Shown here one piece after another: positions 909 to 59,376 of a stretch of DNA of 64,000 nt (position 1 is its first letter; the number at the start of each line of letters is the position of its first letter). The stretch comes from an uncultured Prevotellaceae bacterium (GTDB lineage: Bacteria; Bacteroidota; Bacteroidia; Bacteroidales; Bacteroidaceae), in the NCBI GenBank assembly GCA_902786565.1, contig CADACW010000001.1, positions 55,151 to 119,150 of the forward strand, written 5' to 3'. Made by a program: the position numbers and the translations under genes. Below the pieces are notes generated by a model. It had not been told where the DNA came from and made no database searches. It saw nothing but the letters and a program-made list of their open reading frames with translations.

Positions 909-917
909 TACTATACG

Positions 918-2618: not shown

Positions 2619-2657
2619 ACACTCTATAAAATATTATTAATACACGTAATTTAAACA

Positions 2658-12196: not shown

Positions 12197-13525
12197 TTGA
12201 AGGTTAAGGAGCTGAAAGAGTTTTTCCAGGTGGGCATCTGGCGGGTGGACGACGACGAGCTGCCGCCCGTGCGCCGACTGCTGTATGCCGTTGTGAAGAC
12301 GGCCTATCTGGCCATTCGCTTCTTCACCACCAAGCGGGTGCTGACGCAGGCCTCGGCCCTGACCTACAGCACACTGCTGGCCATCGTGCCCATCCTGGCC
12401 GTGGTGTTTGCCATTGCCCGCGGCTTCGGCTATAATAAATATATAGAGGTATGGTTTCGCGACGCCTTCTCGTCGCAGCCCCAGGTGGCCGAGGTGATGA
12501 TTGGCTTCGTCAACAGCTATCTGGTCCACACGCGGAGCGGCATCTTCCTGGGCGTGGGCCTGGTGTTCATGCTCTACACGGTGCTGATGCTGGTGAACAA
12601 TATCGAGCTGACCTTCAACGAGATATGGCAGGTGAAGAAGAAGCGCAGCATCTTCCGCACCATCACCGACTATCTGGCCATGTTCTTCCTCTTCCCCATC
12701 CTGATAGTCGTCTCGTCGGGCATCAGCCTGTTTCTGGCCACGGTGGCCAAGTCGCTGCCCGACTTTCTGCTGCTGGGGCCGGCAGTGAGGAAGCTCATCG
12801 ACCTGTCGCCCTACGTGCTCATGTCGCTGCTCTTCATCGGCCTCTACGTCTTCATGCCCAACACCCATGTGCGGGTGCGCAACGCCATCGTGCCGGGCAT
12901 CCTGTCGGGCATCGCCATGCAGCTGCTGCAGTTTGTCTACATCCACTCGCAGATATGGGTGACGGGCTACAACGCCATCTACGGCTCGTTTGCAGCCCTG
13001 CCGCTGTTCATGCTGTGGCTGCAGCTGTCGTGGACCATCTGCCTCTTCGGTGCCGAGCTGACCTACACGTCGCAAAACCTTGACTACTACGACTATAACG
13101 CCACAACCGACGACATCAGCCACCGCTACCAGCTGATGATCAGCGCCCTGCTGATGTCGCGCATCTGCCGCCGGTTTGCCGACGGGCGCAAGGCGCCCAC
13201 CGCCGACGACCTGCGACAGGAGACGGGCGTGCCCATCCGCATAGTCAACGACCTGCTCTTCCGGCTGATGGAGGCCCGCATGCTCATTGAGGTGTCGCCC
13301 GACGAGAAGGGCGACGCATCGACCTTCGTGCCAGCTGAAAGTTTGGACAACCTGAACGTGGGCGTAATGATTGACCGCCTGGAGGCGCAGGGCCGCTGGC
13401 AGCTGGAGCTGCCCGTGGCCGGACTGATGACCGCCGAATGGGCCAAGGCCATACAGCTGCGCTCGGACTTCCTGCGGCAGTTGCGAGCCATCCGGCTGGA
13501 GCAACTACAGAGAATTGAAAATTGA
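12197..13525 (+). CDS. YihY/virulence factor BrkB family membrane protein
   Basis: ASALTYSTLLAIVP, FNEIWQVK, YNAIYGSFAALPLFMLWLQLSWTICLFGAE. The TTG start is uncertain. Confidence 0.9.
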   Translation: MKVKELKEFFQVGIWRVDDDELPPVRRLLYAVVKTAYLAIRFFTTKRVLTQASALTYSTLLAIVPILAVVFAIARGFGYNKYIEVWFRDAFSSQPQVAEVMIGFVNSYLVHTRSGIFLGVGLVFMLYTVLMLVNNIELTFNEIWQVKKKRSIFRTITDYLAMFFLFPILIVVSSGISLFLATVAKSLPDFLLLGPAVRKLIDLSPYVLMSLLFIGLYVFMPNTHVRVRNAIVPGILSGIAMQLLQFVYIHSQIWVTGYNAIYGSFAALPLFMLWLQLSWTICLFGAELTYTSQNLDYYDYNATTDDISHRYQLMISALLMSRICRRFADGRKAPTADDLRQETGVPIRIVNDLLFRLMEARMLIEVSPDEKGDASTFVPAESLDNLNVGVMIDRLEAQGRWQLELPVAGLMTAEWAKAIQLRSDFLRQLRAIRLEQLQRIEN

Positions 13526-13591
13526 AAATTGAAAATTGAAAATCGAAAATCGAAAATTGAAAATTGAAAATTGAGAATTGAAAATTGAAAA
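13510..13591 (+). repeat. Heptamer tandem repeat (GA[A/G]AAT[T/C]) x11.7
   Basis: Counted directly: 11 full units at 13510-13586 plus a partial unit. It spans the yihY stop codon and the translation-initiation region of the next gene. Confidence 0.95.
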
Positions 13592-24539: not shown

Positions 24540-24617
24540 TTTACCCCCCCTTAGAGATAAGTGCCACTTATCTCGGAGATAAAAGGCACTTATCTCGGAG
24601 ATAAAAGGCACTTATCT
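24540..24617 (+). repeat. Left 78-bp inverted repeat (three 22-bp-period palindromic units)
   Basis: TTTACCCCCCCTTA, then GAGATAAGTGCCACTTATCTC-G-GAGATAAAAGGCACTTATCTC-G-GAGATAAAAGGCACTTATCT. This is the exact reverse complement of 55853-55930. Confidence 0.95.
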
Positions 24618-24635
24618 CTGAGACCCCTTTTAGGG

Positions 24636-32400: not shown

Positions 32401-33211
32401 AGGTGGCCTGTCCGCATTTGGCCGACGAGGGGTAGTCCTCATAGAGGTGGTTGGCCACACACTCTACATCGGGCCCCATGTCCTGCCCTTGGTCCCAGCC
32501 GTAGCAGCTGATGACGCCGAGCGCCTTGACGGCATCTGCATTTGTGCTGCTGGCCAGGCCTGCCTTGCCTGCGGTGTTCCACTTGAAGATGCGGTAGGAC
32601 GAGATGGTGCCGTCGAGCAGCTGTGGCAGCGTGGCCATCTCGAGGTCGGCATTGTTGGCAATGAAGCAACGCTGATAGCCATAGCCGCTCTTCTGTGTGG
32701 CGAAGGTCACCATATAGCCGCGCTTCAGGCGGAAGGAGCGTATGCGGTTGTTCAGTTTCTGGTCGGTGAGGGTGACCATGTAGCCGCCATCGTTCTCCAG
32801 TCCGAAGTCGCTGCTCTGCTCTCCGCCAAAGTTCTGCTCGCTATAGACGGTGAGGGGCTTGTCGGTCGAGGCGTAAGGGAGGATGATACAGCCGTGGGAG
32901 CCGTAGAGGCGCACCTGGCAGTTGACGCCATTGCGCGCTACAGCGCCCTTGATCCTGACTCGTGTGGGCAGCAGCGAGGCGATGGCCACCGAGGGCTTGG
33001 TGCGCTCCAGGATGAGCACGGCATGGTCGGTGTTGACGATGTCCACCAGTCCTTCACGGTCAAAGGGCGTATCGGTGTTCACGATGTAGTCTACATCGTC
33101 GGTAAGGGTAACGCTCTCGGCCACCTGGCTCACAGTGGTCTTGGTGTTTGCTGCGGCGGCGGGCAAAAGGAACAAGGCCACTGCGACAAGGATTAATAGT
33201 AGTCTTTTCAT
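29492..33211 (-). CDS. Multimodular GH128-like (Glyco_hydro_cc) glycoside hydrolase with beta/gamma-crystallin-like, FN3-like and CBM-like modules and a C-terminal dockerin-like domain
   Basis: SPI signal. Crystallin-type motifs TVYSEQNFGG / LNNRIRSF / DGTISSYR. GH-A motifs TNNEP, LCSPS, DLHCYW and PIWISEW. IIANGNFE module. Twin Ca-loop repeats GDVNGDGRVDVAD / ADVNGDIRVDVAD. Promoter match at 33259-33266. Confidence 0.75.
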   Translation of the reverse strand: MKRLLLILVAVALFLLPAAAANTKTTVSQVAESVTLTDDVDYIVNTDTPFDREGLVDIVNTDHAVLILERTKPSVAIASLLPTRVRIKGAVARNGVNCQVRLYGSHGCIILPYASTDKPLTVYSEQNFGGEQSSDFGLENDGGYMVTLTDQKLNNRIRSFRLKRGYMVTFATQKSGYGYQRCFIANNADLEMATLPQLLDGTISSYRIFKWNTAGKAGLASSTNADAVKALGVISCYGWDQGQDMGPDVECVANHLYEDYPSSAKCGQATWTCHLKTNNEPRNSSDDKPQSLATILDNWQNLMRTGMRLCSPSSWDGSDYSDGSGFIKTFLDSIDARGWRCDIVDLHCYWVVDAFSNIAAMQAKYKRPIWISEWIWGASWNSNGIFESGKTKWDNEWAVKTICTKLNDWGYIERYFYWNSEGSEKSKLYVNDALTPAGEWYSKQLTGMGYNASYGKVPNTPPMRGGFRDFRVSTDGGKATITWHDYDGEYNQLMEVLRKEHGGGWQTWQTIRPQDAEADYIITDDDYTEGTRYRLHIRSFSGRDYYSSEDLEAGEAVVTEAGTRYVGGNIIANGNFEMGFHGWTNGQGNPLAQPWFEVFPKRLTDGYFLQAFSNHGKDNVGALKTAFDIEPGQDYLFQVAGQNFGDYVKVDVRTKGNTTDENRLTLKNSSYWATRQGIFNSGTNNEALLAFRWLAATAQIGDIELHRLFDTRQEAIADGVAQARRRAQVFTQYNTGLPALNTELMQTVSGQTGTDEAALKAIELATNAALTALRQKSVIDSLLTVAAAVDGMLFEGREDLLAAEQQAATAGTAADIARALTLLQQALGNFLTMAEAAKQPLAPAFDDETAWQTKVGSYTGGDQRTATQQDLTCWNAWWSGLSSSEGTAQTMTVTQQVTGMAEGLYSLECKGSTQHYCLSDQHAFITAGEGDETTAVSPALTRDYLDIPNTLSAWQTLTTTPVYVPEGGALTIGFTGSKAGATDNAWRRYGNNDTANNTGDRREGWWCATDFRLLYHPLFKKSPTPSGWTTVCLPYAFRVPEGVNVYRIAGLTSDYSRVCLEQVTETVAGHPYVVSSALPQATFYTSGQAATIPSHDDGCLRGYFKYIGWASAGTYQLFDDGEWHRIASADERYKPGNYCAYIIRAEGMTIFDAWEGPTMVIHGVQDELGTTETLGDVNGDGRVDVADIAAIITVMAGLNHSPHYKADVNGDIRVDVADIATVIDIIAGKTGYRPEIKTE

Positions 33212-33447
33212 AAATGATTATTATTAGATGTTGCTGACTTGCTGTTCTGAAGAAAGTGCAAAGATAATCATTTTCCAATAAACGAAAGAGAATTTTCAAA
33301 GAAAAATAGCTGTCATGCCATCAAAACGGAGGATTCTGCTCATAAAGCGGCTTGTCTCACTAAAAAAACATAAAACTACATTCCACTCTTTTGCCTATTC
33401 AAAAGAAATACTTACCTTTAGCGTCAAATTCAAAAAAACACGTCGAT

Positions 33448-34212
33448 ATGACAAACGCTGTTGACGGCAATAAGGAGAATGAGATGCCCAGCATCTTCAG
33501 AAGCGTACCCAAGTGGCAAGATTTGCGTTTCTACCAGAAGTCGGTGGTGCTCTATCAGCTGACTTATTGCTTCTGTGAACGCTTTCTGCCTAAGCACGGC
33601 GACCGTACTGTGGACCAGATGGTGCAGGCCGCCCGCTCAGGCAAGCAGAACATTGTGGAAGGCTCTGAGGACGGCAAGACTTCTACAGCCATGGAGCTGA
33701 ACCTGCTGAACGTGGCTCGCTCCAGCATAGGCGAGTTGCGGCAGGACTACGAGGACTTCCTGGTGTCGCGGAAGTTGCCACAGTGGACACCTGCCGATCA
33801 GCGTTTCCAGCCAATGCAGAATTTCACCAAAAGTCACAATCAACTGGCCGACTACAAGCCTTACTTCCACCAGTGGACAGCCGAAGAGATGGCCAACGTG
33901 GCTCTGACGCTATGCTTTCAGGTGGACACCATGATGAACAAGTATCTGAAGAAGGTGGAAGAGATATTCGTGAAGGAAGGTGGTGTGAAAGAGCGTATGC
34001 ATAGAGCACGCACAGAATACCGCAAGCAGCAGGACGAGCGTCTGGCAGAGCTGGAGCGGAGGGTTCCTCAGTTAGAGCAGCAATTGCAGGCGGCCCAAAC
34101 AGAGGCCGCTCAATGGAAAGCAGCCTACGAGGACCTGAAGCAGCGTGCCCTGAAGGCTTATTACCGGCAGCAGGAGGAGATAAAGGCCCTGAAGCAGCAA
34201 TTAGGGGTGTAG
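33448..34212 (+). CDS. Four-helix-bundle protein (23S IVS-encoded family, 'suffix' type) with a coiled-coil tail
   Basis: WQDLRFYQKS...RTVDQMVQAARSGKQNIVEGS...LLNVARSSIGELRQDYEDFL...EEMANVALTL. It is on the strand opposite to the surrounding locus. Confidence 0.85.
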   Translation: MTNAVDGNKENEMPSIFRSVPKWQDLRFYQKSVVLYQLTYCFCERFLPKHGDRTVDQMVQAARSGKQNIVEGSEDGKTSTAMELNLLNVARSSIGELRQDYEDFLVSRKLPQWTPADQRFQPMQNFTKSHNQLADYKPYFHQWTAEEMANVALTLCFQVDTMMNKYLKKVEEIFVKEGGVKERMHRARTEYRKQQDERLAELERRVPQLEQQLQAAQTEAAQWKAAYEDLKQRALKAYYRQQEEIKALKQQLGV

Positions 34213-34217
34213 GGGGG

Positions 34218-34268
34218 CTATAGAGACTATAGAAGCTATAGAGACTATAGAAGCTATAGAGACTATAG
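34218..34268 (+). repeat. 9-mer tandem repeat alternating CTATAGAGA / CTATAGAAG
   Basis: Five full units plus CTATAG, counted directly. Confidence 0.9.
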
Positions 34269-34320: not shown

Positions 34321-36213
34321 TTACTTCATTGGCAAATACCAATTCTTCTCGTCGAGCAGACTGACCTGTGGATTCTTGTAGGCCAGCTTGGCGGCGAGCC
34401 ACCGAGAACCGAAGTTGGCACCATAGGTACCGGCGACATTTTTGTGGCGGGCAATGCGGGTGAGGTCGCCAAAGCGGTTGCCCTCGAAGGCCAACTCAAG
34501 AGCCATCTCGTCGCAGATGATGTCCTCGACGGCATTGATGGTGTCCTGTTTGGAGAATTGAGAATTGAGAATTGAGAATTGAGCGTTCAGTTCGTCAAAC
34601 TTCTTCGCCACGATGCTGTCCAGCTGATAGGGCGAGAAAGCGCCCTGCGTGTAGTACGTGCCACGCGAATGGATGCCCCAGTTCTGAGCGAAGCCTTCCT
34701 TGTTCTCGTCGCTGAGGAAGGGTATGGTGGTGCGTAGCATCTGGTAGGTGGCGGGCTTGATGTAGCGTCCAGGCACGGCGAGGTCGGTGGAGTCGCCCTG
34801 AATGACGTAGGCAGTGAGGTCTTCGTTGATGCCATCCTTCAGTATGGCAAAGGCAGCATCGGGATAGCCCATGCGGTTGAGGGCCTCGGCCAGGCGCAGA
34901 TAGACGGTGGCCGTGCGGTAGATGGGGATATTGGCCGAGCTGAACTTGGTGAGCACGGCGTAGGTCTGCGCTGCCTGTGCGGCGGTGGCGGCGGTGGTCA
35001 CCTGGTGCATGGAGGCCAGCCGGCGCATGTCGCCAATCTCGGCAATGCGCACCTCGGTCTGGGCGTCGGTCTGCCCAGTGGGGGTGTAATAATAGTCCTG
35101 GCGGTCAGAGAGGGCGACATATGAGGGCGAGGCATCGACCTGCCGCTCCAACAGATAACGTGCATCCGACGAGGCTCCGCCACTGGTGGTGCTGTAGAAG
35201 TCGTAGCCGAAGATGCGTGGCAGGTCGGTGACGACGCCGCGCAGGCGGTTGGCGGCCAGGGGGATATAGGTCACGATGTCGTTGGTGGAGGTGGTGCTGA
35301 AGATGGAGGTCCAGGAGAAGCTGTTGCTGCCGATGGTGAAGTTGAGGGAGGTGGGCAGACGGTCGCCCAGCTGGTCGATGTAATTCATCGGGAGAATGTA
35401 AGCCTGACGCACCTGCCACTGGTTGTTGCGCAGGAAATTGAAGTAGCTGCGTGCAGCGCGCTCATACTGATGGGTCTCCAGAAAGAGGTCGCCGAGAACC
35501 ACATCGACAGGAATCATGGCATAGCGCGAGGTGACCGTCTTTTCGACGGGGTTGTCGCTATCGCTGCTGTTGAGCACACCGGCCGAGATGTTGCCATAGG
35601 TGGGAACGGGGGTGCCGCTATACTTGATGAGCTCTGGCACTAGTGCGTCGCAGATGCCCTGCAGGTCCTTCTGCTCGGTGACGCTGTTGGCATCGCCTAT
35701 GGAGACGAGCGGGTCGGTATAGAAAGGCACGGTGCCATAGTTCTTGCAGAGCTGAAGGTAAGCCCAAGCGCGCACAGCGAGTGCCTCGGCATATTCGGGT
35801 ATGGCCACCTTGCGGCTACCGGTGAGCAGGGTGGTGTCGCGATGTGCCAGATAGTAATTGCAGTTGTTGATGATGCGATAGTAGAGATAGGCAGAGTCGT
35901 ACTTGCAGGTGGCATCGGCCGAGAAGTCGGCCAGCCGGCGCAGGTCGGTCTCCGTATATTCGTTGGTGGCGGTAAGGTCGCCACGCATCTCTCCCTGAAG
36001 CACATACTGGTCGGCCACCTGCTGGAGTCCCTTCAGTATGCCGAGCGTATAGAACATGGAGTCGGTCTTCTCGCTGAGTGAGGGGTCGAAGATCTGACGG
36101 TCGCTGTCGGTCTCGAACATGTCGGAACAGGAAGAAATGAGAAATGAGAAATGAGAAATGAGAAATGCTGCACACAGCATCCGCTTCACAGTCTTATTTG
36201 TTTTGGTAATCAT
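34321..36213 (-). CDS. susD: SusD/RagB-family lipoprotein (second pair)
   Basis: Lipobox ISSC, YYRIINNCNYYL, AEALAVRAWAYLQL, YLRLAEALN and ELAFEGNRFGDLTR. It follows a susC. Confidence 0.88.
   Translation of the reverse strand: MITKTNKTVKRMLCAAFLISHFSFLISSCSDMFETDSDRQIFDPSLSEKTDSMFYTLGILKGLQQVADQYVLQGEMRGDLTATNEYTETDLRRLADFSADATCKYDSAYLYYRIINNCNYYLAHRDTTLLTGSRKVAIPEYAEALAVRAWAYLQLCKNYGTVPFYTDPLVSIGDANSVTEQKDLQGICDALVPELIKYSGTPVPTYGNISAGVLNSSDSDNPVEKTVTSRYAMIPVDVVLGDLFLETHQYERAARSYFNFLRNNQWQVRQAYILPMNYIDQLGDRLPTSLNFTIGSNSFSWTSIFSTTSTNDIVTYIPLAANRLRGVVTDLPRIFGYDFYSTTSGGASSDARYLLERQVDASPSYVALSDRQDYYYTPTGQTDAQTEVRIAEIGDMRRLASMHQVTTAATAAQAAQTYAVLTKFSSANIPIYRTATVYLRLAEALNRMGYPDAAFAILKDGINEDLTAYVIQGDSTDLAVPGRYIKPATYQMLRTTIPFLSDENKEGFAQNWGIHSRGTYYTQGAFSPYQLDSIVAKKFDELNAQFSILNSQFSKQDTINAVEDIICDEMALELAFEGNRFGDLTRIARHKNVAGTYGANFGSRWLAAKLAYKNPQVSLLDEKNWYLPMK
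34553..34580. repeat. (GAGAATT)x4 inside the susD coding sequence
   Basis: Encodes QFSILNSQFS near the C-terminus. Confidence 0.9.
36134..36167. repeat. (GAAATGA)x4.9 encoding the signal-peptide core of SusD
   Basis: Perfect heptamer run encoding FLISHFSFLISS. Confidence 0.95.
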
Positions 36214-36243
36214 AACTGTTATCTATTAACTAAAAACTATGAA

Positions 36244-39200
36244 TTATAGATTGATTTTCACACCGAGGGTGAAGGCACGGCCCTGGGCCACATTGCCGGC
36301 ATCGATGCCCTGAGAGAGCACACTGTTGGCCACGGAGAACTCCGGGTCGGCACCGAGATAGTGGGTCACGGTGAAGAGGTTGTTGGCCTCGGCCCACACG
36401 GCCAGTCCGGGCAGCCATGAAAGGTTTACAGGCAGGTCGTAGTTCAGACGGAGGGTCTTAAGGCGCAGATAGGAGCCATCCTCAATCCAACGGTCGCTGA
36501 AGCGCGAGTTGCCCATGGGGTCGCCGTAGCTGATGCGCGGCATGTCGGTGTGCTGGCCCTCTGTGCGCCAACGGTTGGTCATGGCGGTGGTCTGGTTGTA
36601 GAAGTTGTTGCCGCCTTCGAGCACGCTGCGCTGATAGTTGAACACATCGTTGCCCAAAGAGTAGTTGAAGCCGATGTGCAGGGTCAGCCGCTTGTAGGTG
36701 AGAGTTGCAAAAATGTTGCCGTAGATGTCTGGGTTGGGGTCGCCAATGACGGTACGGTCGGCAATGCCAATCTCACCGTCGTTGTTGAGGTCGACAAAGC
36801 GGATGTCTCCGGCACGGAAATACTGTCTGGCACCCGTCTCATCTATGAGGTAAAGGCGTGAGGCTTGAGAAGCCTCGGCATCGGAGGCAAAGACGCCATC
36901 GGTCTTATAGCCATAGAACAGGCCTACGGGCCGACCAACGATGGTGGCGACATTATCGGTGCCATAGATGGACGAGGTGTAGCCCTGTGCCGTGGGCTTT
37001 CCGTCGTAATAGATTCGGCTGTCGTTGGGCAGCGACGTCACCTTGTTCTTGTAGTGGCCCATAGAGGCACCCACCTCAAGCGTGACGTTACGGGTGACGA
37101 GGGGCTTGGCGGTGACGGTCAGTTCGAAACCGGTGTTGGTGAGCGAACCGCCGTTGCTCCAGTAGTTGTTGATGCCAGCCACGGGGTTGTCGAAACTCTT
37201 CAACGTCAGCAGGTTGGAAGTGTGGTGCCAGAAGAAATTGAAGTCGAGGCCCAGCCGGTTGTTGAGCATGAAGCTCTTCAGGCCCACGTTGAACTTGTTG
37301 GTGTGCTCCCAGGTGATTTCCTCGTTGCCGATGTTGTTGAGCTGTGCCGCCGTAGACTTATAGAGGTACTTGGACACTCCGAATGAAGTGCGGGCAGCGT
37401 AGTTGTTGATGTCGTCGTTGCCACTGAGGTCCCATCCGCCCCTGATGAGCAGATAGTTGATGGTCTGCGGGTTGACACCGATGAGCTTCTGGAACCAAGG
37501 CTCGTTGGTAAGCACCCATCCCACCTGCACACTGGGGAAGAGTCCCCACTGCACCCCTGCGAGCTTGATGCCGCCCTTGGCCTCCTTGCCGAAGCGGCTG
37601 CTGGTCTCCATGGCGAGCGATGCCTGGAGGAAATAGCGGTTGCGGTAGTTGTAGTCGGCATTGGCATACCAGGCCATATTGCGCCATGAGTCGTCGGCGC
37701 CAGTAGCCTCGATGAAGTCCATGTTGGCCGAAATGTTTGGTGTCTTGTCGTTGGCAGCAGTGGCGTATTGTCCCTGCGGCTCATTGTCGTCGTAGGCAAA
37801 AGAGGTGTAGCGCATGCCCCCGAAGAGGTTGAGGGATGAGCGTTCCGTCTTCAGGCTCCAGTTGAGACGGGTGTCGGAAGAGATGCTCGTCTCCTTGGAG
37901 AACATGGACATGGCCAGGTTCTGCACACGGCCTACGCCATCGATGAGGAAGGTGGGCATGCCATCGGTGGGACGATAGTAGCGCTGCGAGATGCGGTCGA
38001 GAGTGTAGCTGAATGTCTCGGTGAGCGACAGGTTGTCGTTGAACTCGAAGCGCGGTGCGATGACGGCATTGAAATGGGTCATCTCGGCACGGTTCTTGTT
38101 GATGGCTGAGCCATTGGCCAGAAGTGCCGTGGGATTGCCCAGGGTGAGGTCCTCGTTGAGTACGGTCAGGAAGTCATCGGCCTCGGAGAGGGTTGACGAC
38201 AGCTGCTGTGTCACATTGTTATATGTATAAGGATTGAGGAACGGTGCCTTGATGAGGGCCAGCAGAGTTGGCGACGAGACGGGAGCCGAGTTGAAATTCT
38301 CAGGTGCACCGTTGTCGAAGACGTCGCGATTCACCTTCGTATAGCTCATGTCGAAGCGTGTGGTGAGGCGCCTGATCACGTTGATATCTGTGTTGAAGCG
38401 CACGTTCAGACGGTCGAATCCATTCTTGCGTGCCGTGCTCTGGCCGTCGGTATAGCCCAAAGAGAGATTGTACATGCCCACGTTGTCGCCACCCTGCACA
38501 TTGATGTTGTAGTTCTGCGTCATGGCGGTGTGGTAGACTTGCTTGCCCCAGTCGGTCTCGTTATGGAACTTTGTGTAATAGTACTTCTGAGGGTCGTCCA
38601 CCAGGAACTTGAATGTCTGCGGGTCGGTGTAGTTGCTGATGCCGGGATAGGTGCCCAGCATCTCTGAAGCATACAGGCGATACTGTGCTGCATCCATCAC
38701 TGAGGGCAGAGTGGGCTTTAGCGAGACACCGATGCCGATGTTGGCATCGATGCGGGTAGCCATGGAGCGGCCTCGTTTCGTCTCAATGAGCACCACACCG
38801 TTGCCACCCTTGGCACCGTAGAGGGCAGTGGCGTTTTTCAGCACGGTGACCTTCTCGATGTCTTCCGGGTTGATGTTGAGCAACAGGTTGGTGTAGTCGC
38901 CATAGTGCAGGGCAGTGCGTGTCTGCTGCATGTCCTGAATCACGCCGTCGATGACAATCAGCGGCTGGGCGTTGGCCGTGAGTGAGTTCAGGCCACGCAC
39001 AAACATGGCAGCGCCATAGCCGGGGCCTCCGCTGCGGGTGATGGCCCTCACATCGCCACCCAGTTCGCTCTCAATATCGGTCTCGATGGTCTGCGACGTG
39101 GTTTTGCGCATGGTGGCTGTGGCTGCAGCGGTGACATCTGTGCCTTTGTCGTACATGGAGCGGAACTTGTCGGGCAGCATCTCAATGCTCAGTGATGAGG

Positions 39201-39543
39201 GGTGAGCAGTGAGGGCCGAAGGGATGGCCACTTGCAACGACAAGAACTCAGGGGCATGGACATACAGCGCAGTAGCTGCTGTGGGCACCTTGATGATGAA
39301 CGAGCCGTCGTCGCCAGTCATCGCCGTATAGTTGTCGTAGCCTAAGGCTTGCACAATGACGCCGGGCAGAGGAGCCTTCGTGGCAGCGTCGATGCACGTT
39401 CCGCTGACTTCCATGGTGGGATAGACAGGGCCTCTCTTAACTGGCAGCTTTCTTGCTACTATAGTTTCCTCTTCATCGTCCTGCGCCAAAACCGTGGAGC
39501 TGAACGAGAGAGACAAAATGACAAATAATAAACTTATCCTCAT
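36244..39543 (-). CDS. susC: SusC/RagA TonB-dependent transporter (second pair)
   Basis: [58 protein letters not shown], C-terminal LGVKINL. Confidence 0.92.
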   Translation of the reverse strand: [1099 protein letters not shown]

Positions 39544-39598
39544 ATTCGATTGAAATGATAAATGACAATTGATAAATGATAAACTTCAGGAATCGAAG

Positions 39599-41335
39599 CT
39601 ATTCGCGGTCGTATTTGTAGTCAGGATGCTCCTTCAGGTGGTCGTCAAGCTCCTTTGGCCTGAGAATGATGCAGTCTATGCGAAGTGTGCGGTCATACTG
39701 ACTGGACAGTGCATTGGTGACATTGCTGCGGAAACGCATATAGGGATAATAGCGACCAGTCTCGACGAAAGCAACGGGGAAAGTGAATTCGCCGAGAAAG
39801 AGGGTGTCGATGCGCGTTGGGTCGTTTTCAAAGAAGTTACTGTTGGCGGCCGTATTGCGCATACGTTTCTCCTGGCTCTTGCCTTTGGCATCGGCATAGC
39901 CGATATCGACAACCATGCGGTTGGGCAGGGCCACGGCATTGGGATTGGTGATATTGGCAGGCACGAAGACGGCATAGACGTTGTAGGTGGCAGAGCGCAC
40001 GCCTGAGAGGTAGAAATCCACCTCAGGATTGGTGTTCGACGCGCTGGGCTGTACCTGCAGATAGCGCCCTTTGGAAATGATGCCAGCAATGGCTGGGTTC
40101 TGCGCACTCTCCGAGACGCGGACGCTGACAGGCTCGCCGGCGGTGTTGAAATAGTTGGCCACCATCGAGCCTTCGGCCTCTTGGCGAAGCTCGGGATTCC
40201 ACGATGTCCAGGGACGCATGCGCAAGCTGTCGGTGACCCACACAGCGCCATTGCTCTTGTCGACACGACGGGCACCCTCAAAGAGCAGGGCAGCATCTTC
40301 AGCATAAACCTTGGAATTGGTGGTGCTGACGAGAGAGTCGCACTGCAGGCGCTGGCCTTCAGCCAAAGCGCCCAGCCGGGAATTGTCGTAAACATTGTTG
40401 CTGTAGAACAGGTCGCGCAGAAGCATGACATTCACCAATGAGTCCTGCAGCCGCTCAGCATCCTTCAGATAGACAACGGTGACTTTCTTTTCGCCGACGG
40501 TGGTGGAGGTATTCTCCATAAACTCAAACTGAGGCGCGTAATTATAGAAAGCCTTGATTTGATTGCGGGCCTTGGCCCAGGCCTCGTTGGTGGGCAGTAT
40601 CATAGTGTAGTTGCTGTCCTCGCGATTGATATAGGCCCTGTTGCGTATGTAGAGTTCGTTGTGCTCGTAGAACACAGAATCGAGGTAAGTCTGCTCGCCA
40701 TTAAGCACCGGCCCCGGCACACTCTTCTGCTCGTTGAGTTCGCGGGTGTCGAAGCTGTGGAAATAGTCGCTGATGGAGTCGAGGGGATAGGTCTCGCTAT
40801 TGAGCGACTCGTAGATGTTGGGCAGGAAGGGGATTTTACCTCTCAGGACATGTATGGTGCCGTTTTTCGCAGCCAGGTTGGGCTGAGTGACATCGATGTC
40901 CTGCATCTGATAGGAGCCGTTGCCGCGGAAGTTCATCAGCTTCTCGTTGAGCATATAGATGTTCTCCTGCAGGGCGCCGGATGCCGGGTAGTTGCTGCGC
41001 GCAATGTGGTTCTGGACGAACTGCTTCTGCAGCCGCTCGCTGTTTTCGGTGCGCAAGGCATCGTAGTCGAAGGTGCCGTCGAGTGGAGCCCAGACGGTGT
41101 AGGTCTGCGAGGCAGAGAGCACCGCGTCATAGTCTGTCTGACGGAGCAGGTTTGCAAACTGCGACAGCTGGCCGTTGTTTTCAATATTCTCCCACAACGT
41201 CTGCTGCTGGGTGGCCGTCACATGCGTGTCAGCATCGAAGTGGTCGTCCCAATCGGAGCAGGAAGAGGTGAGAAGTGAAGTGAGAAGTGCAGTGCACAGC
41301 ACACCAGTCACATTCTTGTTTATCTTAGTAATCAT
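39599..41335 (-). CDS. Fasciclin (FAS1) domain lipoprotein
   Basis: Lipobox TSSC, H1 motif YTVWAPLDGTF and H2 motif AKNGTIHVL, then a C-terminal beta-sandwich. Confidence 0.8.
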   Translation of the reverse strand: MITKINKNVTGVLCTALLTSLLTSSCSDWDDHFDADTHVTATQQQTLWENIENNGQLSQFANLLRQTDYDAVLSASQTYTVWAPLDGTFDYDALRTENSERLQKQFVQNHIARSNYPASGALQENIYMLNEKLMNFRGNGSYQMQDIDVTQPNLAAKNGTIHVLRGKIPFLPNIYESLNSETYPLDSISDYFHSFDTRELNEQKSVPGPVLNGEQTYLDSVFYEHNELYIRNRAYINREDSNYTMILPTNEAWAKARNQIKAFYNYAPQFEFMENTSTTVGEKKVTVVYLKDAERLQDSLVNVMLLRDLFYSNNVYDNSRLGALAEGQRLQCDSLVSTTNSKVYAEDAALLFEGARRVDKSNGAVWVTDSLRMRPWTSWNPELRQEAEGSMVANYFNTAGEPVSVRVSESAQNPAIAGIISKGRYLQVQPSASNTNPEVDFYLSGVRSATYNVYAVFVPANITNPNAVALPNRMVVDIGYADAKGKSQEKRMRNTAANSNFFENDPTRIDTLFLGEFTFPVAFVETGRYYPYMRFRSNVTNALSSQYDRTLRIDCIILRPKELDDHLKEHPDYKYDRE

Positions 41336-41372
41336 AATCCTTAGTTCTTGATTCTATATTTTCGTAAGCATC

Positions 41373-43436
41373 TTAATACATGTCTTCAGCATAGATGGTG
41401 TTATTGTAGATGTTCTCAGGGCAGAACTCTATGTAGTCGAGGTGGAACTGTGCTCCAGTGTTGTCGGGCAGCACGGTCTTGAAGCGGAGCCAGTATTCTC
41501 CCTGCTCAAAGTTCTGCTTGGCAATGATTCGCCGCAGGTCCTCGCGGTTGGAGCGGGCCACAGTGGAGCCGTTGGGGCCGAGGGTGTAGTAGAGCGGGCC
41601 ACGCATATAGCCGAGGTTGTGCATATTGTTGTCGCTCTCCACACCACGGTCGTCAGTAACGGTCCAGAGGCACCATCCGGTGCGGGTGTCGGGTGTTCCG
41701 TCGCTGTTGTTGGCCGGGACGAATCGCATGTCGAGCGGGATGTCAAGGGCCTCCATCGTGGTCTGGTCATTGCTGCGTCCGAGGTAGAACTGCAGCATGC
41801 CGCGTGCGCCGTTGGCAGTATAGCCGATTCGCAGCTCGTAGGTGCCGTCGGGCACTGGCGGCAGGCGCATGGCGAAGTCGTAGGCTCCGACGCAGAGGAA
41901 CTCGTCGCCCTCGTAGTTGGACCAAGCACCATCGTCGGGAGCGAGGTAACGGAGCTGTGTGTCGTCGCCGTTATAGACGGTGAGGTGGTCGAAGTAGTTG
42001 CTGGGGAAGCGCACTCGGCTGAAGTCGCCGCCATCGACGTGGGCCTTGATTTCGGCAACGGTCATGCCGCGTATGCCATTGGACATCATCTCACCGAGGA
42101 GCGATGTGTCGTCGAAGCGGAGCCGCTCGTTGAGCGCTCCCTGGGGCACGTCGGCGTTATAGACGAGGAGGCCGTTGAGCGGATGGATATAGCCATTGGC
42201 GGCGGCCACCTGACTGTTCTGCCCGGCAAGTTCGACACCCTCGAAGAGCACGGTGTGCATGGCGTTGGTTCCGAGCTCGGCCACACGGTCAGTGAGCGAG
42301 TTGTTGGCCGTCCAGCGGTTGAGCAGACGCTTGCCGCTGTTGCGGGTCAGCTTTATCAAGGTATAGGGAAGCATGGTCTCATAATACTCGCAGAGTGTGA
42401 CCTTCGACACCTGGTTGTAGTCGTAGACGAGCTTGTTCCAGGGCACCTTGTACTGCACGAGGTGATATCGCACGAACATGTTGAGCACGTTCCAGGGGTT
42501 CTCGTAGTCGCGGCCGGTGCTGACTTCGATATTGTTACGGCGTGCATAGTCGTACCATCCGCTGCCCTCGTCGGCACAGGCGGCATATTGCTCGGCGGCA
42601 TATTTTGCCAAATCGTCAATGCCATTGATGCCGTTGGCTTTGAACACTTCGTCGGTCTCGGCAAAGACGGTGTAGCCCAGCTCGCACTTTTCAGGCACCC
42701 AGTAGGTGGTCTCATTGGTCACCTCCTTGATGTCGGTCTTCTGCTGGAGGGTGAGTGAGTCGGCCAGCCCGGTGACTTTCAGGGCGTTTGAGAAAATGGT
42801 GAAGAGGTCGGGATGGCTCTCCATCTCGCCAGCCACGAGGAGATTGGAGCGTGTGATGACGTGGTTCAACTCGTGCAGCACGCCGTTCTCAAGCTCGTTG
42901 TCCATGCTGGTGACGAGTGCGGCACGGCTAATGACGACCTGTCCGGAGACGGAGTCGATACTGGTGTTGATGTCGCGGCCCAGCAGCGTCTTGATGGTCA
43001 TGCCATTGCCCATATTCACGCCCATCACCTTTGTGTTGAGCAGATGGAAGAGTGCAATGTCTTCGCAGAGCGAGTCGGTGAGCCCCTCCAGTCCCCGTGC
43101 CGTCATGCCGTTGTGGGGCAGGTCTATGTTGGTGTTATCATCGTAGAGGCTGTCTATGTAGTTGGTCACGGCATCGTTGGTCGGTGCGAAGCAGGTGTAG
43201 GTGCCATAGGCGGAAAGAATCTTGTCGTAGCCTATGCGCGAGAGGATGTAGTTGAAAGAGCTGAACTGCTCGCTGCGGTTGGAGAGATAGTCCTCGATGG
43301 TCTCACCGGTGAAGGTGTACAGGTTGGACTCGTCAATGTCCTCGGAGCAGGAAGAAACGAGAAACGAGAAATGAGAAATGAGAAATGCCGCGCACGCCAC
43401 ACTCCATTTCACTCTTTGGTTTATCTTGGTAATCAT
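41373..43436 (-). CDS. Lipoprotein with two FAS1 domains and a C-terminal beta-sandwich
   Basis: Lipobox VSSC. YTCFAPTNDAV...ENGVLHELNHVI and YTVFAETDEVF...ANGYIHPLNGLL. Confidence 0.82.
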   Translation of the reverse strand: MITKINQRVKWSVACAAFLISHFSFLVSSCSEDIDESNLYTFTGETIEDYLSNRSEQFSSFNYILSRIGYDKILSAYGTYTCFAPTNDAVTNYIDSLYDDNTNIDLPHNGMTARGLEGLTDSLCEDIALFHLLNTKVMGVNMGNGMTIKTLLGRDINTSIDSVSGQVVISRAALVTSMDNELENGVLHELNHVITRSNLLVAGEMESHPDLFTIFSNALKVTGLADSLTLQQKTDIKEVTNETTYWVPEKCELGYTVFAETDEVFKANGINGIDDLAKYAAEQYAACADEGSGWYDYARRNNIEVSTGRDYENPWNVLNMFVRYHLVQYKVPWNKLVYDYNQVSKVTLCEYYETMLPYTLIKLTRNSGKRLLNRWTANNSLTDRVAELGTNAMHTVLFEGVELAGQNSQVAAANGYIHPLNGLLVYNADVPQGALNERLRFDDTSLLGEMMSNGIRGMTVAEIKAHVDGGDFSRVRFPSNYFDHLTVYNGDDTQLRYLAPDDGAWSNYEGDEFLCVGAYDFAMRLPPVPDGTYELRIGYTANGARGMLQFYLGRSNDQTTMEALDIPLDMRFVPANNSDGTPDTRTGWCLWTVTDDRGVESDNNMHNLGYMRGPLYYTLGPNGSTVARSNREDLRRIIAKQNFEQGEYWLRFKTVLPDNTGAQFHLDYIEFCPENIYNNTIYAEDMY
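43354..43387. repeat. (GAAA[C/T]GA)x4.9 encoding the signal-peptide core of a FAS1 lipoprotein
   Basis: Same length (34 bp) and register as 36134-36167; encodes FLISHFSFLVSS. Confidence 0.92.
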
Positions 43437-43462
43437 AACAATGAACTATTAACTGTAAACTA

Positions 43463-45262
43463 TTAATTCTTTGAGGTGCTCTTCTCCTGCACATAGACGG
43501 GGTTCTGCTTCAGGAGACGATTGACCTTGGTCTCGCTTTCGAGGATGGGCCAATAGAGGTAAGGCTCTGACTTGAGTTTGTAGCTGACGGCATCGCCCTC
43601 TCCGCCTTCGCCATATTTCCTGATGATGAACTTGAGCATCTGGGGGTAGAGTTCAGGCCAACTGTTGGAGTCAGCCAGCAGCTGGTTGATGTCCACGCCC
43701 TGCATGTGCCGGTAGCTGTAGCGCATAAGGTCGAACCAGCGTTTGCCCTCAAAGCAGAGCTCGCGTTCACGCTCTGCCAGGACAAGCAGTTCGATGGCAC
43801 TCTTGGTGTTGTAGTCTTCATACTTCAGTGTGTCCTTGGCAGTCATAATCATCGAGCGCTTGTTGACAGCCTGAACCAGGTCGAAAGCCTGCTTGAGGCG
43901 GTCTTGGTCTTCGTCGCCGGAGGAAAGGGCTTCCAAAGCCTCGGCCTTCATCAGAAGCAGATCGGTAAGGCGGTAGACAATCCAGTTCTGCCGGAATTCT
44001 TCGAAGGCACGCGAGTTGGACTTTGTGTCGCCAGTGGTGCGTGTCAAGATGTCGGTGATGACGCCCGTGGAAATCATCTTGCGCACGCTGAGTTGCTGGG
44101 CCTCCTCGTTGTTGGCCTCGTAGACATTGTTCCAGAACCGATAGTCGTTGCGCGAGACGTAGACCTTCTGCCCCTGGGTGGTGTTGGCATTTTCAGCCAC
44201 CGTGTTGAAAATCTGCGAGGCCATCAGGATGGACGTGGTCTTATGGTCGTCCTTGGTACCAGACTGGTAGTAGTAGTTCTCCAACGTGGTGTTGGAGTTG
44301 TTCTTGCCGTTATACTGCCACTCCAGAATGCTCTCATGTGAGTTGCCTTGATTGGTGGAGAAGATGGTGGTAAAGGCCATGTCACCGTCTTCGAGATGAT
44401 ATTTGTCTGTCTCTCTGCTGCTGCTCACGCCGGCGCTGTGGTTCAGATTATAATAGTTGTCTTTGGCCTCGACCACCTTGTCCACATAGTTGACCACCTG
44501 CTCGTAGTCGCTGCTGCTATGGGTCATCGAGGCTCTCCACAGATAGATGTCGGCCAGGATGGCATCGACGGCATCGCGGGTGATATATCCCCAGTTGCGC
44601 CAGTCGTTGTAGCCGTAGGCTCCCGACTTCATGACGTACTTCTCGGCCTCTTGGAGGTCGTCGATGCACTGCTGCAGCACCACGCCGGGAGCGCTTTGGG
44701 CAACGGTCATATCCTGGCTGTCGTCCTCGAAAGACTGCTCGGTGAAGGGCACGTCGCGGAAGGCGCGTACGAGGTAGAAATAGCACAGAGAGCGAAGTGC
44801 CAACATCTGTGCGCGGACGGTCTGATAGTCGCCCTCGGTAAACTCTGGGTCTTCGGCCATCACGTCGGTGGCATGGTTAAGAACGATGTTGCAGTTGTTG
44901 ATGACCTTGTAGAACGAGGCCCACGAATTGAATCGGTTTGTAGGCAGCAGGTTGACGGCGCTGATGTTGTCGAGCGTATAGTCGCTGTAGTCGGTGAGCT
45001 TCACCAGCTCGTCGCTGCGGTAGGCTCCCCAAATGATAGACCTCTCCTGAATGTCGCCGCTGAGCATGCTCAGGTAGCAGCCGTTGACCATCTCGTCGAC
45101 GTCTGCCTTTTTCTTCCAGAAGTCGGTGCCTACGGTGCGGTCGGTGGGATAGATGGTTAGGAAGTCGGTACAGCTGTTCAGGGTGATTGCGGCTGCAAGG
45201 ATGCTGCAGGGAATCAGACTGGCAGTGAAGCTTTTTCTTATCTTATTAGCCATAGTTATCAT
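43463..45262 (-). CDS. susD: SusD/RagB-family lipoprotein (first pair)
   Basis: Lipobox LNSC, FYKVINNCNIVL, LRSLCYFYLVRAFRDVP, YRLTDLLLMKAEA and ERERELCFEGKRWFDLMR. The start is ambiguous (45268, 45262 or 45253). Confidence 0.9.
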   Translation of the reverse strand: MITMANKIRKSFTASLIPCSILAAAITLNSCTDFLTIYPTDRTVGTDFWKKKADVDEMVNGCYLSMLSGDIQERSIIWGAYRSDELVKLTDYSDYTLDNISAVNLLPTNRFNSWASFYKVINNCNIVLNHATDVMAEDPEFTEGDYQTVRAQMLALRSLCYFYLVRAFRDVPFTEQSFEDDSQDMTVAQSAPGVVLQQCIDDLQEAEKYVMKSGAYGYNDWRNWGYITRDAVDAILADIYLWRASMTHSSSDYEQVVNYVDKVVEAKDNYYNLNHSAGVSSSRETDKYHLEDGDMAFTTIFSTNQGNSHESILEWQYNGKNNSNTTLENYYYQSGTKDDHKTTSILMASQIFNTVAENANTTQGQKVYVSRNDYRFWNNVYEANNEEAQQLSVRKMISTGVITDILTRTTGDTKSNSRAFEEFRQNWIVYRLTDLLLMKAEALEALSSGDEDQDRLKQAFDLVQAVNKRSMIMTAKDTLKYEDYNTKSAIELLVLAERERELCFEGKRWFDLMRYSYRHMQGVDINQLLADSNSWPELYPQMLKFIIRKYGEGGEGDAVSYKLKSEPYLYWPILESETKVNRLLKQNPVYVQEKSTSKN

Positions 45263-45317
45263 ATTCATAAGATTTGAGTGTTGTAAGTTGAGATTTGATG
45301 TGTCACTCATGACTCGG

Positions 45318-48300
45318 TTAGAATCCCACTTGGATATTGAGCGTCATTGACTTGGAGCGTGGCGTCTGCGAGTTGTCGTAGGCAATGCCCCAGGAACCGG
45401 GTGCGTGCTCGGGGTCGGTGCCGCTATAGGTGCTCCAGACGAAGAGGTTCTGGCCGGAGAGGCTCAGCGTGAGCCGTCGAAGCCCGAGGGGCTTGAGCAT
45501 CTTCTGCTTGAACGAGTAGGACAGCTGGATGTAGCTCATGCGCACAAAGGAGGCATCCTCCACGTAGCGGTCGCTGCCGAGCCAGTTGTAGCCAGTGTCG
45601 AACATGGCACGTGGTATCTCGGTGACGTCGCCGTTCTTGCGCCAGCGCCAGTTGACGGCAGAGCTTTGGTTGTAGGCATTGAACATCTCTTCGAGGCCCA
45701 TCTTTGCCGCGTTGACAATCTTGATGCCCTGACGGTAGCTGAAGCTGGTTCTGAGAGACCAGTCGGAATACTGCAGGTTGAAGCCGAAGCCTCCATTCAG
45801 ATGGGGGTTGGAGTTGCCGAGGTAGACAATGTCGAGCGAGTTGATCTGTCCGTCGTTGTTCACGTCGTCATAGATGGCATCACCGCCCTGGAACCTGTAG
45901 GTGGAAGAGCCGCTGGCACTATTGAAGTTGTAGACCATGCGGATGGGCATTCCCTTGGAGTCCATCATCACATTTCCCTCGTTGTCGATGGCGATGGGAG
46001 CCGTCTTGCCAGAGGCGAGGAAGGTGTTGTTGATATAGTCACGCAGCTGTTCGCCGGTCCAGTTGTTGCGGTTCTTCATATTAGTCAGGTATTCGTAGGT
46101 GTACTGGTAGACGCCCTTGTAGCGCAATCCGTAGATGGAGCCGAGGGGGTTGCCCTTCTGAATACGGTTCAGATACTGGCCGCGCTTGCTGGAGTCCCAC
46201 TCGCTGTTGATGCTTTCGAGGGTGCTTTCGTCCATATCGACAATCTCGTTGAAGTTTTGCGAGATGTTGAAGTTGGCGCTCAGTGAGAACTTGCCTATCT
46301 TGATGAGCTTGTTGAGGTTCACATTCAGCTCCCAACCCTTGTTGGTCATCTCGCCCACATTGGCCCATGAGAGCGACGAGAATCCTGCCGTGGAGGGGAT
46401 GCGTACACCCGACATCAGCAGGTCTTTGGTGCGCTTGAAATAGTAGTTGAAGTCGCCGGTGATGCGGTCGTTGAGGAATCCGAAGTCACCACCAATATTA
46501 TACTGTGTGGTACGTTCCCATTTCAGTTCGTTCAGCTGCAGACCCTCCAAATAGGTGACGCTCTTGGTGTCGGAGATGCTGCCGTAGACACCGCTGGTGT
46601 TGTACTTGGCATACTGCAGATACTGCGAGCCGGGCTGACGGCCTACAATACCCCACGATGGACGGAAGGAGAGCATAGACAGCCATTTCTTCGACCAATT
46701 CATGAAAGGCTCGTCGCTGATGTTCCATCGAGCGGAGACGCCGGGGAACCATCCCCATTTCTTAGAGTCGCCGAACTTAGTGGTACCGTCAGCGCGCATG
46801 GAGAAGTCAAGGGCATATTTTGACTTGTAGGAGAAGTGGCCGGAATAGGTCATCGACATGTTGCGCCACTGCCCGTTGCCCGTGCTCATGGTTTCGAGCT
46901 GCGTGTCGACGGTAGGCGACGTGGTGCCGCTGGGCGCATTCTTGTTGGCCACGGTCTGGCTGTTGTCGTTGCCGGTGGTCATCTCCCATCGGGCCAGCAT
47001 GGTGGCATAGAAATCCTCATTTTTAAAATGGGGATTAAACGTCAAAGTGTGGCGAGTGGTGAAGGCGAGCGAGTTGTAGTCGTAGACCTGCGAGCGGTTA
47101 TAATTCTCGTTCTGCCAGCCATCGGTAGCCAGAGAGCCCGGCCAGTACTTAGGCTCGCTCTTTGAGAAGATGTCCATATAGACCAGTCCTGTGTAGTTGA
47201 GCTGTGTCTTATGGTCATCCTTGCCCAGGAGATAGTAGTCGATACGCATTTCGGGCGAGATACGGTAGGTATGCTCCTTACGCCACGCCAACTCGGCAAT
47301 GGCCACGGGGTTGCCCAAAGACCGGATGCTGCCCAACTGCTTAGACGAGGTGCCTGCTGCCGACGAACCTGCCTCATTGCTGGCACCTTCGGGGAGCATG
47401 ATGTAATACTCGCCGGTGTTCGAACCGTCGGCGTTCTGCCGATAGACGCTCATGTTCGGAGCCATCTGCTGGGCGCGGCCCAGGATTCTGTCGTCGTAGT
47501 TGCGGTTGTTGCTGGTATAGGTCAGCGGGAAGGTGGTGCGGAAGGTGATGCGGTCGGACACAAAGTAGTCCAAGGCCAGCTTTGTGGAGAAGCGGTCCAG
47601 GGTCTGCTTGATGATGGTGCCGTTCTGGTGGTCATAACCGGCGGAGACGCGGAAGTTGGCCTTCTCGCCACCACCGGTGATTGTGACGTAGTGGTACTGC
47701 GAGATGCCCAGCTGCTGCACTTCGTCCACCCAGTCGGTGTTGTTGTTCCAGTTTTCAAACTCGGCCCAGGAGCGGTTGTAGTTGATCTCGTTGATGTTGG
47801 TCGTTGCCGATACTGCCTGTGCGGGATTGTAATACATCTCCTTCAGCATCATGGTGTAGTCGTCGCCGTTCAGCAGATTGTAGCCCTTTGGCTGCCACGA
47901 TGCCTGCAGGCGCAGCGAGTAGTCCACACGGGTGGCACCGCGTGCGCCGCGCTTGGTGCGGATGGAGATGACACCGTTAGCACCACGCGAACCCCAGATG
48001 GCTGTGGCAGCAGCATCCTTCAGCACGTCGATGGCCTCGATGTCGGAAGGGTTGACGGAGAGCAGCGAGGCGTATGTCTCCTCGTTGGCGTTCTGGAAGT
48101 CGAAGTTCTCGTCGGGGTTGTCAAAGATATTGCCATCGACGACGATGAGCGGCTCTGCACTGCCGTTGATACTGGTGACACCACGGAGGCGCATCGACGT
48201 TCCGGCACCGAGGTTACCTGAGTTGGACACAATGTCAAGACCGGCTATCTGGCCCTGCAGGGCTTCGTCGGCAGAGGTGAAGGCGAGACCTTCCACCTGC

Positions 48301-55852: not shown

Positions 55853-55930
55853 AGATAAGTGCCTTTTATCTCCGAGATAAGTGCCTTTTATCTCCGAGAT
55901 AAGTGGCACTTATCTCTAAGGGGGGGTAAA
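55853..55930 (-). repeat. Right 78-bp inverted repeat
   Basis: Exact reverse complement of 24540-24617. Confidence 0.95.
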
Positions 55931-59065: not shown

Positions 59066-59071
59066 AAAACA

Positions 59072-59367: not shown

Positions 59368-59376
59368 GAAAATATA

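Follow-up and report, generated by a model that had tools for sequence, protein, structure and literature searches.

Heptanucleotide arrays form the signal-peptide cores of unrelated surface lipoproteins in a rumen Prevotella and are probably a stable by-product of repeat turnover and module exchange, not a frequent switch

The DNA analyzed here, called the window, is a 64,000-nucleotide stretch of contig CADACW010000001.1 (assembly GCA_902786565.1, positions 55,151 to 119,150 of the forward strand). The source organism is a rumen Prevotella that has not been cultured; names of conspecific proteins read 'MAG … [Prevotella sp.]', and all sequence sets that contain it are ruminant gut metagenomes. 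The G+C content of the window is 55.7%. Within a double Sus-like locus on its minus strand, the lipoproteins SusD2, FAS1-B, and FAS1-C have signal peptides whose hydrophobic cores are coded by tandem copies of a heptanucleotide. We consider it probable that these arrays are a stable by-product of a heptamer class found across the lineage and of gene conversion between the 5' modules of lipoprotein genes, with array length held by selection, and that they do not act as a frequent switch. The features concerned are as follows, in positions of the window.

34321..36213, minus strand: SusD2, SusD/RagB-family surface lipoprotein of 630 amino acids (aa), from the open reading frame (ORF) and Pfam SusD_RagB
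36127..36213, minus strand: SusD2 signal peptide M1-C29, h-region AAFLISHFSFLI, lipobox ISSC, then acidic SDMFETDSD (translation)
36133..36167, minus strand: perfect (TTTCTCA)5 array in SusD2, AGAAATG on the plus strand (Tandem Repeats Finder, TRF: 5.0 copies, 100%)
41373..43436, minus strand: FAS1-B, fasciclin-domain lipoprotein of 687 aa (Pfam Fasciclin)
43347..43436, minus strand: FAS1-B signal peptide M1-C30, lipobox VSSC, then SEDIDES (translation)
43353..43387, minus strand: FAS1-B array of three TTTCTCA and two TTTCTCG units, the latter from two A>G changes (TRF: 5.0 copies, 96%)
39599..41335, minus strand: FAS1-C, fasciclin-domain lipoprotein of 578 aa (Pfam Fasciclin)
41258..41335, minus strand: FAS1-C signal peptide M1-C26, module type MITKIN...SSC (translation)
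41264-41294, minus strand: decayed, shorter TTTCTCA array in FAS1-C (TRF, degenerate)

The N-termini translated from the three genes are MITKTNKTVKRMLCAAFLISHFSFLISSC, MITKINQRVKWSVACAAFLISHFSFLVSSC, and MITKINKNVTGVLCTALLTSLLTSSC, identical to the three strings quoted in an earlier note on this DNA. All three signal peptides start with MITK… and have a basic n-region, a hydrophobic core, and the lipobox (I/V/T)SSC, and in each the lipobox cysteine is followed by serine and then by acidic residues. SusD2, for example, can be parsed as MITKTNKTVKR / MLCAAFLISHFSFLI / SSC / SDMFETDSD. The mean hydropathy of its h-region is 1.79, and the values over the signal peptides are 1.5-1.8. Serine followed by acidic residues after the cysteine is the lipoprotein export signal of Bacteroidota (PMC5080379), so by motif all three genes carry both a type II signal peptide and this export signal. 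The mature N-termini are conserved, with CSDMFETDSDRQIFDP in SusD2 and C(K/S)EDIDESNLYTF in FAS1-B. Judged by these motifs, the three peptides are likely ordinary functional type II signal peptides of surface-exposed lipoproteins of a polysaccharide utilization locus (PUL), which would be lipidated and exported.

The SusD2 array spans codons 16-27 and the FAS1-B array codons 17-28, in a shared codon register (GCA TTT CTC ATT...). The earlier note had recognized this register and had given the runs as 34 bp; TRF gives 35 bp. Its statement that such heptamers are hydrophobic in all three frames is arithmetically true, because 7 and 3 are coprime and every frame reads the cyclic peptide FLISHFS. 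The repeat origin of the hydrophobic core is supported. The further idea that repeats give rise to signal peptides de novo is overstated, since the n-region and the lipobox pre-exist and the h-region alone is replaced.

The number of units was compared between populations, using consensus assemblies and contigs together with protein variants. SusD2 has five units in the window and in 7 independent assemblies, one of which carries an A>G substitution, and the full-length conspecific SusD2 variants (9/9) are all 630 aa long with an identical signal peptide. The FAS1-B protein variants (6/6) are all 687 aa long, 3 further assemblies have a FAS1-B array of the same length, and in the sister species (L212/L214) this array consists of five perfect units. 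Contigs of 8 public runs from 8 studies contained no indels over the FAS1-B and FAS1-C arrays. For each type of array, length is constant across species that are 60-90% identical, while point interruptions accumulate in the arrays. Out-of-frame signal peptides were found in none of 132 orthologous loci (85 of the SusD2 type and 47 of the FAS1-B type), which include about 15 distinct array-bearing signal peptides. The independent ON/OFF switching of the lipoproteins that the earlier note had proposed is not supported by these data, and the signal-peptide arrays do not behave as a frequent ON/OFF switch. That note had named an invariant unit number, within and between populations, as the result that would refute switching; between populations this is what was found, with five units throughout.

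SusD proteins of 599-602 aa were considered as OFF alleles and rejected, because they reflect contig ends or gene-caller starts and not frameshifts. Two of them (P0002 and P0129) are short because the contig ends inside the array, and in two others (P0134 and P0139) the gene caller passed over a signal peptide that is intact and in frame. Logan contigs (including L210), which are k=31 assemblies, break exactly within the perfect 35-bp SusD2 array. On such broken contigs the gene caller begins SusD at Met32, and the resulting 599-aa protein looks like an OFF allele but is an artefact. A look-up of the Met32-start product of the window itself returned nothing.

Slippage of heptamers was seen in this lineage at another array, which lies inside the SusD2 coding region.

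34553..34583, minus strand: (CAATTCT)4.4 array in SusD2, coding for the loop ...NAQFSILNSQFSK... before the conserved C-terminal helices (TRF 100%, translation)

The orthologous internal position varies in both the sequence and the number of its units. The AACTCTC unit occurs 2 times in L203 and 5 times in L212, so that the two differ by 21 bp and stay in frame. In L211, exactly one ACTCATC unit fewer is present than in L205-L208, and the loss shifts the frame of the last ~45 residues, for a product of 556 aa; this allele is known from a single assembled contig.

These observations bear on the possibility of a contingency locus, in which slipped-strand changes of ±1-2 units switch SusD2 and FAS1-B independently at a rate that is too low, or too strongly counter-selected, to appear in consensus assemblies. 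The design would allow it. A non-triplet unit lies in the 5' coding region, and in silico changes of ±1 or ±2 units shrink the SusD2 and FAS1-B ORFs to 29-134 aa, whereas with ±3 units the ORFs stay in frame (SusD2 at 623/637 aa, FAS1-B at 680/694 aa). SusD2 has a perfect array, unit number changes at the internal SusD array in close relatives, one frameshift allele included, and the arrangement resembles the CTCTT leader-peptide repeats of Neisseria opa (PMC3960869). However, classical contingency loci have frequent OFF alleles among strains, and a strain-variable unit number with ON and OFF alleles was not found here: length variants are absent from the 8 assemblies, 15 conspecific protein variants, and 8 public runs, and the 132 orthologous loci are all in frame. 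Five units are also short for a high switching rate, and array length is conserved across species while substitutions build up in it (L202, FAS1-B, and the interrupted arrays). We regard switching of this kind as quite unlikely.

The signal-peptide arrays belong to a much larger set of heptamer repeats. Counting perfect runs of 19 nt or longer, the window has 7 at period 7, where block shuffles give 0.0, and none at any other period from 3 to 12. Orthologous rumen loci totaling 554 kb have 45 perfect period-7 arrays and 0-5 arrays for each other period, and 386 kb of more distant loci of human-gut type have 3 perfect period-7 arrays. The common units consist of TGA and four purine- or T-rich bases (TGAAAAT, TGAGAAT, TGAGAAA, TGAAGAA, TGATAAT, TGAAAGG, and TGAAAGT). 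In the purine-rich orientation TGA occurs in all three frames, and the arrays overlap stops or lie 0-45 nt upstream of starts. The pyrimidine-rich orientation is stop-free, and its arrays lie 33-140 nt inside ORFs, in signal peptides. Besides several shorter heptamer arrays, the window has two examples next to start codons.

13513..13591, plus strand: (AATTGAA)11, purine-rich, overlapping an ORF stop (ORF end 13525) and ending 4 nt before ATG 13596
39553..39583, minus strand: (TTTATCA)-type array immediately upstream of the SusC2 start codon (TRF)

AATTGAA arrays also stand directly before the SusD start in L143, L161, and L167, in the form (AATTGAA)n ATT ATG. A species-level scan with (ATTTCTC)3 gave at least 120 loci in a wide range of species, many of them in rumen Prevotellaceae and others in Planctomycetes, Acidobacteria, and further groups. 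Among the matches listed, (GAGAAAT)n/(ATTTCTC)3 arrays are mostly intergenic or outside long ORFs and often stand in inverted pairs, and a few form the core of the signal peptide on other proteins, among them GldN of two further Prevotella species. Contig depth in rumen metagenomes is 560-3466 over the array and 3-50 on its flanks, which shows the array to be highly multi-copy. The repeats therefore have the features of a genome-wide heptanucleotide class, with an excess of period 7, a mainly intergenic or upstream-of-start location with stops in all frames, and differences in 7-nt steps. These steps were seen at the internal SusD array only, and the signal-peptide arrays are without them. Heptanucleotides are the commonest long simple-sequence repeats in many bacteria, with slippage of the polymerase as the proposed cause (Mrázek 2007, as cited in PMC4692102). 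TAACTGA arrays that lie upstream of starts, hold stops in all frames, and differ by 7-nt indels between strains are described from Beggiatoaceae, Cyanobacteria, and five Bacteroidetes (PMC4679880).

Two further arrangements of the class were observed in related loci. In L123 (5173-5334; also in L124, L149, and L197), a leader (TGAAGAA)3 and a signal-peptide (TTCTTCA)4 array form an inverted pair ~110 nt apart, possibly a long-range hairpin. The pair brackets the real start codon, and the gene caller extends the ORF through it (MKNEEF…). No such inverted partner was present near the arrays of the window when it was looked for. In L170 (11180-19618), at least 12 (GTGAAAG)/(TTGAAAG) arrays of up to 48 nt are packed into 8.5 kb, which is unusually dense, and part of them fall within a nominal 1344-aa ORF.

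Since arrays of the class stand directly before many start codons, they could act at the level of nucleic acid, either as an unstructured pyrimidine-rich start region that aids the Shine-Dalgarno-less translation of Bacteroidota or as the site of a heptamer-binding protein, with the peptide as a passenger. The array is unpaired in the predicted fold, a translational role has been proposed for the TAACTGA repeats (PMC4679880), and the inverted pair of the L123 type brackets a start codon. However, the 5' region is no less structured than its shuffles (RNA fold z=0.84), the signal-peptide arrays are oriented opposite to the upstream arrays, most orthologues lack any array, and no binding protein is known. 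Such a role is, in our judgment, very unlikely.

The similarity between the lipoprotein genes extends beyond the arrays. Upstream of the start codons, SusD2 and FAS1-B have homologous spacers.

36214..36246, minus strand: 33-nt spacer between the SusC stop and the SusD2 start, degenerate heptamers TTCATAG TTTTTAG TTAATAG ATAACAG (alignment)
43437..43469, minus strand: spacer upstream of FAS1-B, TTAATAG TTTACAG TTAATAG TTCATTG, homologous to that of SusD2 (alignment)

The upstream 33 nt of the two genes are identical at 25/33 positions (equalled in 10/2000 shuffles), the n-regions at 35/51 (0/2000), and the array and lipobox at 45/50 (0/2000). The mature proteins, SusD-like in SusD2 and fasciclin in FAS1-B, are unrelated. 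At the position of the SusD2 spacer, the related locus L203 has a cleaner (TTCATAG)n. Across genomes, the similarity of SusD2 and FAS1-B signal peptides is 31.5 within the same genome and 22.0±2.2 between genomes (permutation p=8.5e-4), and in 5/23 genomes the best signal-peptide match of a gene is the partner in its own genome. The proposal of the earlier note that unrelated proteins carry a paralogous signal module is supported by this excess and by the similarity over spacer, n-region, and array.

Signal peptides of these proteins are hypervariable even between proteins that are more than 90% identical, and the same types recur on SusD2 and FAS1-B orthologues of different genomes. In locus L162 the n- and h-regions are mosaic among its three genes, and in L160 the genes share a GRGLGVGLL core. 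FAS1-C orthologues whose mature parts are over 90% identical start with an unrelated signal peptide, MIINGINKLCAWKAG…. SusD2 of the window retains the n-region of the L203 orthologue (…KWMLCAAF), while its unit is that of FAS1-B and not TTCTTCA; the sister species L212 has the TTTCTCA array in FAS1-B only. A perfect period-7 run of at least 17 nt is present in 15/92 distinct signal-peptide DNAs, compared with 0.01 in shuffles, and seven units occur in orthologous signal peptides (TTTCTCA, TTCTTCA, TTTATCA, TTTATTA, TTCACTA, TTATTCA, and CTCCTGT). This pattern supports the view that arrays have repeatedly replaced the h-region in orthologues, and shows that repeat-derived cores recur in rumen Prevotella. 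Searches for the signal peptides as such gave little: a concatenated query had 3 weak matches, and a profile search of 1.84 billion representatives returned 5 short proteins (E 2e-6 to 1e-3).

Two side observations concern the same modules. The SusD proteins of L122, L153, L154, L164, and L205 have a further recurrent signal-peptide type, …LLPLAGGGWVGVSC, which is encoded by a G+C-rich perfect hairpin, CCTCCCCCT-CGC-AGGGGGAGG. This suggests that repeat or hairpin elements other than heptamers also occupy signal-peptide cores. L212 and L213 (~3550-3670) are identical downstream and diverge upstream of FAS1-C within 22-nt repeats, ATGAGAAAAAGCCGTTCTTTCT, where L213 has ExbD/TonB/PBP genes in place of the SusD1 and FAS1-B of L212. 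Either the DNA was rearranged at a repeated promoter-like module or the assembly formed a chimera there.

The shared arrays might also have arisen by convergence, if a favored heptamer was expanded separately in three h-regions through slippage bias and the constraint of hydrophobicity, without recombination. The same array does occur in unrelated proteins and in other phyla (GldN, a Sulfurovum signal peptide, and a Thermoguttaceae lipoprotein), and seven different units arose in orthologous signal peptides. Convergence does not readily account for a similarity that reaches into the n-region and the spacer, for the identical codon register and junctions at both sides of the array, or for a within-genome excess that also holds for non-repeat types (L126, L136, L160, and L162). 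Nor does it fit FAS1-C, whose signal peptide is wholly unlike that of its closely related orthologues. We find separate expansion unlikely.

The reading that we prefer, a stable by-product of repeat class and module conversion, runs as follows. The h-region is encoded by a member of the AT-rich heptanucleotide simple-sequence repeats of the lineage, with the general unit TGA plus 4 nt. The pyrimidine strand is T-rich at codon position 2 and reads as F/L/I/S/H in any register, and because of this pyrimidine arrays would be tolerated in coding DNA almost only at signal-peptide cores and surface loops. That SusD2, FAS1-B, and FAS1-C are identical in unit, register, and flanks would be due to recombination or gene conversion between neighboring lipoprotein 5' modules. 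The likeliest event would be the copying of a short tract (array and lipobox) from FAS1-B to SusD2, and short-tract conversion with FAS1-B as the likely donor is the simplest reading. Selection for the reading frame and for signal-peptide length would then hold the array at five units, and would be the cause of its stability.

Several points weigh against this reading. A perfect 35-bp array is hard to maintain without ongoing homogenization, and its perfection suggests recent expansion or continuing slippage and turnover. The adjacent TTTCTCG pair of FAS1-B looks like the duplication of a unit, and independent expansion of one unit in two genes is conceivable in principle. All the population evidence is from consensus assemblies and contigs, which mask minor alleles, and the one unit-loss frameshift allele at the internal array indicates that slippage to a null allele is possible in the lineage. 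Taken further, all three arrays, the one in the SusD loop and both of those in signal peptides, may be genuine low-frequency contingency sites, with a heptamer generator and 5'-module conversion making and spreading the cores. We hold this extended version to be rather improbable. If it were true, rare cells with ±1 unit would lose single surface lipoproteins and keep their SusC transporters, as a bet-hedging against phages, bacteriocins, or host factors aimed at these lipoproteins. The L211 allele that lacks one unit would be a first glimpse of this contingency, and the generator together with module conversion would form a system that creates and spreads signal-peptide cores.

Known systems share parts of this arrangement. 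In Neisseria opa, (CTCTT)n, and Helicobacter pylori oipA, (CT)n, a non-triplet repeat likewise codes for the hydrophobic part of a leader peptide (PMC3960869, PMC10564699), the product is a surface protein, and ±1 unit would frameshift the mature protein. In those genes, however, unit number differs both between strains and within cultures and OFF alleles are common, with a rate of ~1e-3 per generation for opa, whereas here all sequences seen have five units and OFF alleles were not found. The unit here is also 7 nt long and the host is a commensal member of Bacteroidota. The TAACTGA arrays, the cyanobacterial short tandemly repeated repetitive sequences (STRR), and the GGGAATC repeats of Xanthomonas show an excess of period 7 as found here (PMC4679880, PMC4692102). 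They are also alike in being mostly intergenic and upstream of starts, with stops in all frames of the forward orientation, inverted pairs, and 7-nt indels between relatives. Unlike them, the repeats described here form a family of units (TGA plus 4 nt) and not a single sequence, and their reverse-orientation copies serve as signal-peptide cores, which the papers on those repeats note only as rare intragenic cases.

The vsp/vpma loci of Mycoplasma resemble the present one in that unrelated lipoprotein genes in one locus share a module of 5' untranslated region and signal peptide (PMC2268961). The Mycoplasma module is the substrate of Xer1 site-specific inversion onto a single promoter, whereas no recombinase, inverted module, or promoter cassette was seen here, and the three genes are co-oriented in an operon-like cluster. 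With the SusC/SusD PULs of Bacteroidota the locus shares the SusC-SusD pairing, the accessory lipoproteins, and the export signal (PMC5080379), and nothing is unusual there. No account of heptamer repeats in Prevotella signal peptides turned up in the literature searches, and rumen Prevotella is absent from the heptanucleotide-repeat papers that they returned. To our knowledge, h-regions coded by repeats have not been described for PUL lipoproteins. The case is best filed under two known phenomena, the heptanucleotide class and leader-peptide repeats, to which it adds the filtering of repeat orientation by the genetic code and the exchange of signal-peptide modules.

The double Sus-like locus has the minus-strand order FAS1-A, SusC1, SusD1, FAS1-B, FAS1-C, SusC2, SusD2, and its remaining genes are listed below.

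48800-51706, minus strand: FAS1-A
45318-48704, minus strand: SusC1
43463-45310, minus strand: SusD1
36244..39543, minus strand: SusC2, SusC-like TonB-dependent transporter and upstream partner of SusD2 (Pfam Plug and TonB_dep_Rec_b-barrel)

With a TonB-dependent transporter next to a SusD and accessory lipoproteins, all from Pfam matches, the locus is a SusC/SusD PUL. The conspecific SusD2 protein MBR6320032.1 carries the name RagB/SusD [Prevotella sp.]. Loci that are syntenic with the window have a GH16 and a dockerin-bearing glycoside hydrolase downstream. In the window, the large protein adjoining SusD2 (29492-33211) has a Dockerin_1 domain, which is uncommon for a Prevotella PUL, and its relatives have Glyco_hydro_cc (L203, L212). 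A GH16 gene is inserted between the dockerin protein and SusD2 in relatives, and the window is without this insert.

Other repeats were noted around the locus. Directly past the hairpin terminator of SusD2, an 18-nt unit, GCTATAGAGACTATAGAA, is repeated 2.9 times (34217-34268), adjoining a gene with a 23S_rRNA_IVP domain (33391-34212). At 59071-59374, 68-85 nt tandem repeats in 2-3 copies of 87-88% identity are placed between genes ending at 59065 and 59377. Three tandem copies each of a 22-nt near-perfect hairpin unit (GAGATAAGTGCC/GGCACTTATCTC) are present at 24554-24623 and 55853-55916. These two sites are mutually inverted and flank ~31 kb that contain the Sus-like genes, and both lie ~110-200 nt upstream of a plus-strand gene. 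They may be operator-like or terminator-like.

For practical work, the arrays matter in three ways. Gene callers mis-start these genes at Met32, short-k contigs of metagenome assemblies break at heptamer arrays, and a non-triplet repeat in a leader peptide is by itself insufficient evidence for phase variation. For the biology of the lineage, the arrays would represent a mutational habit, heptamer slippage, on which the genetic code acts as a filter. The repeat cannot code on one strand, while the other strand is open in all frames and hydrophobic, and it would for this reason end up as signal-peptide cores. The locus also shows in a concrete instance how signal peptides turn over like cassettes and are shared within a genome among unrelated PUL lipoproteins whose mature proteins are conserved, which bears on the evolution of secretion signals.

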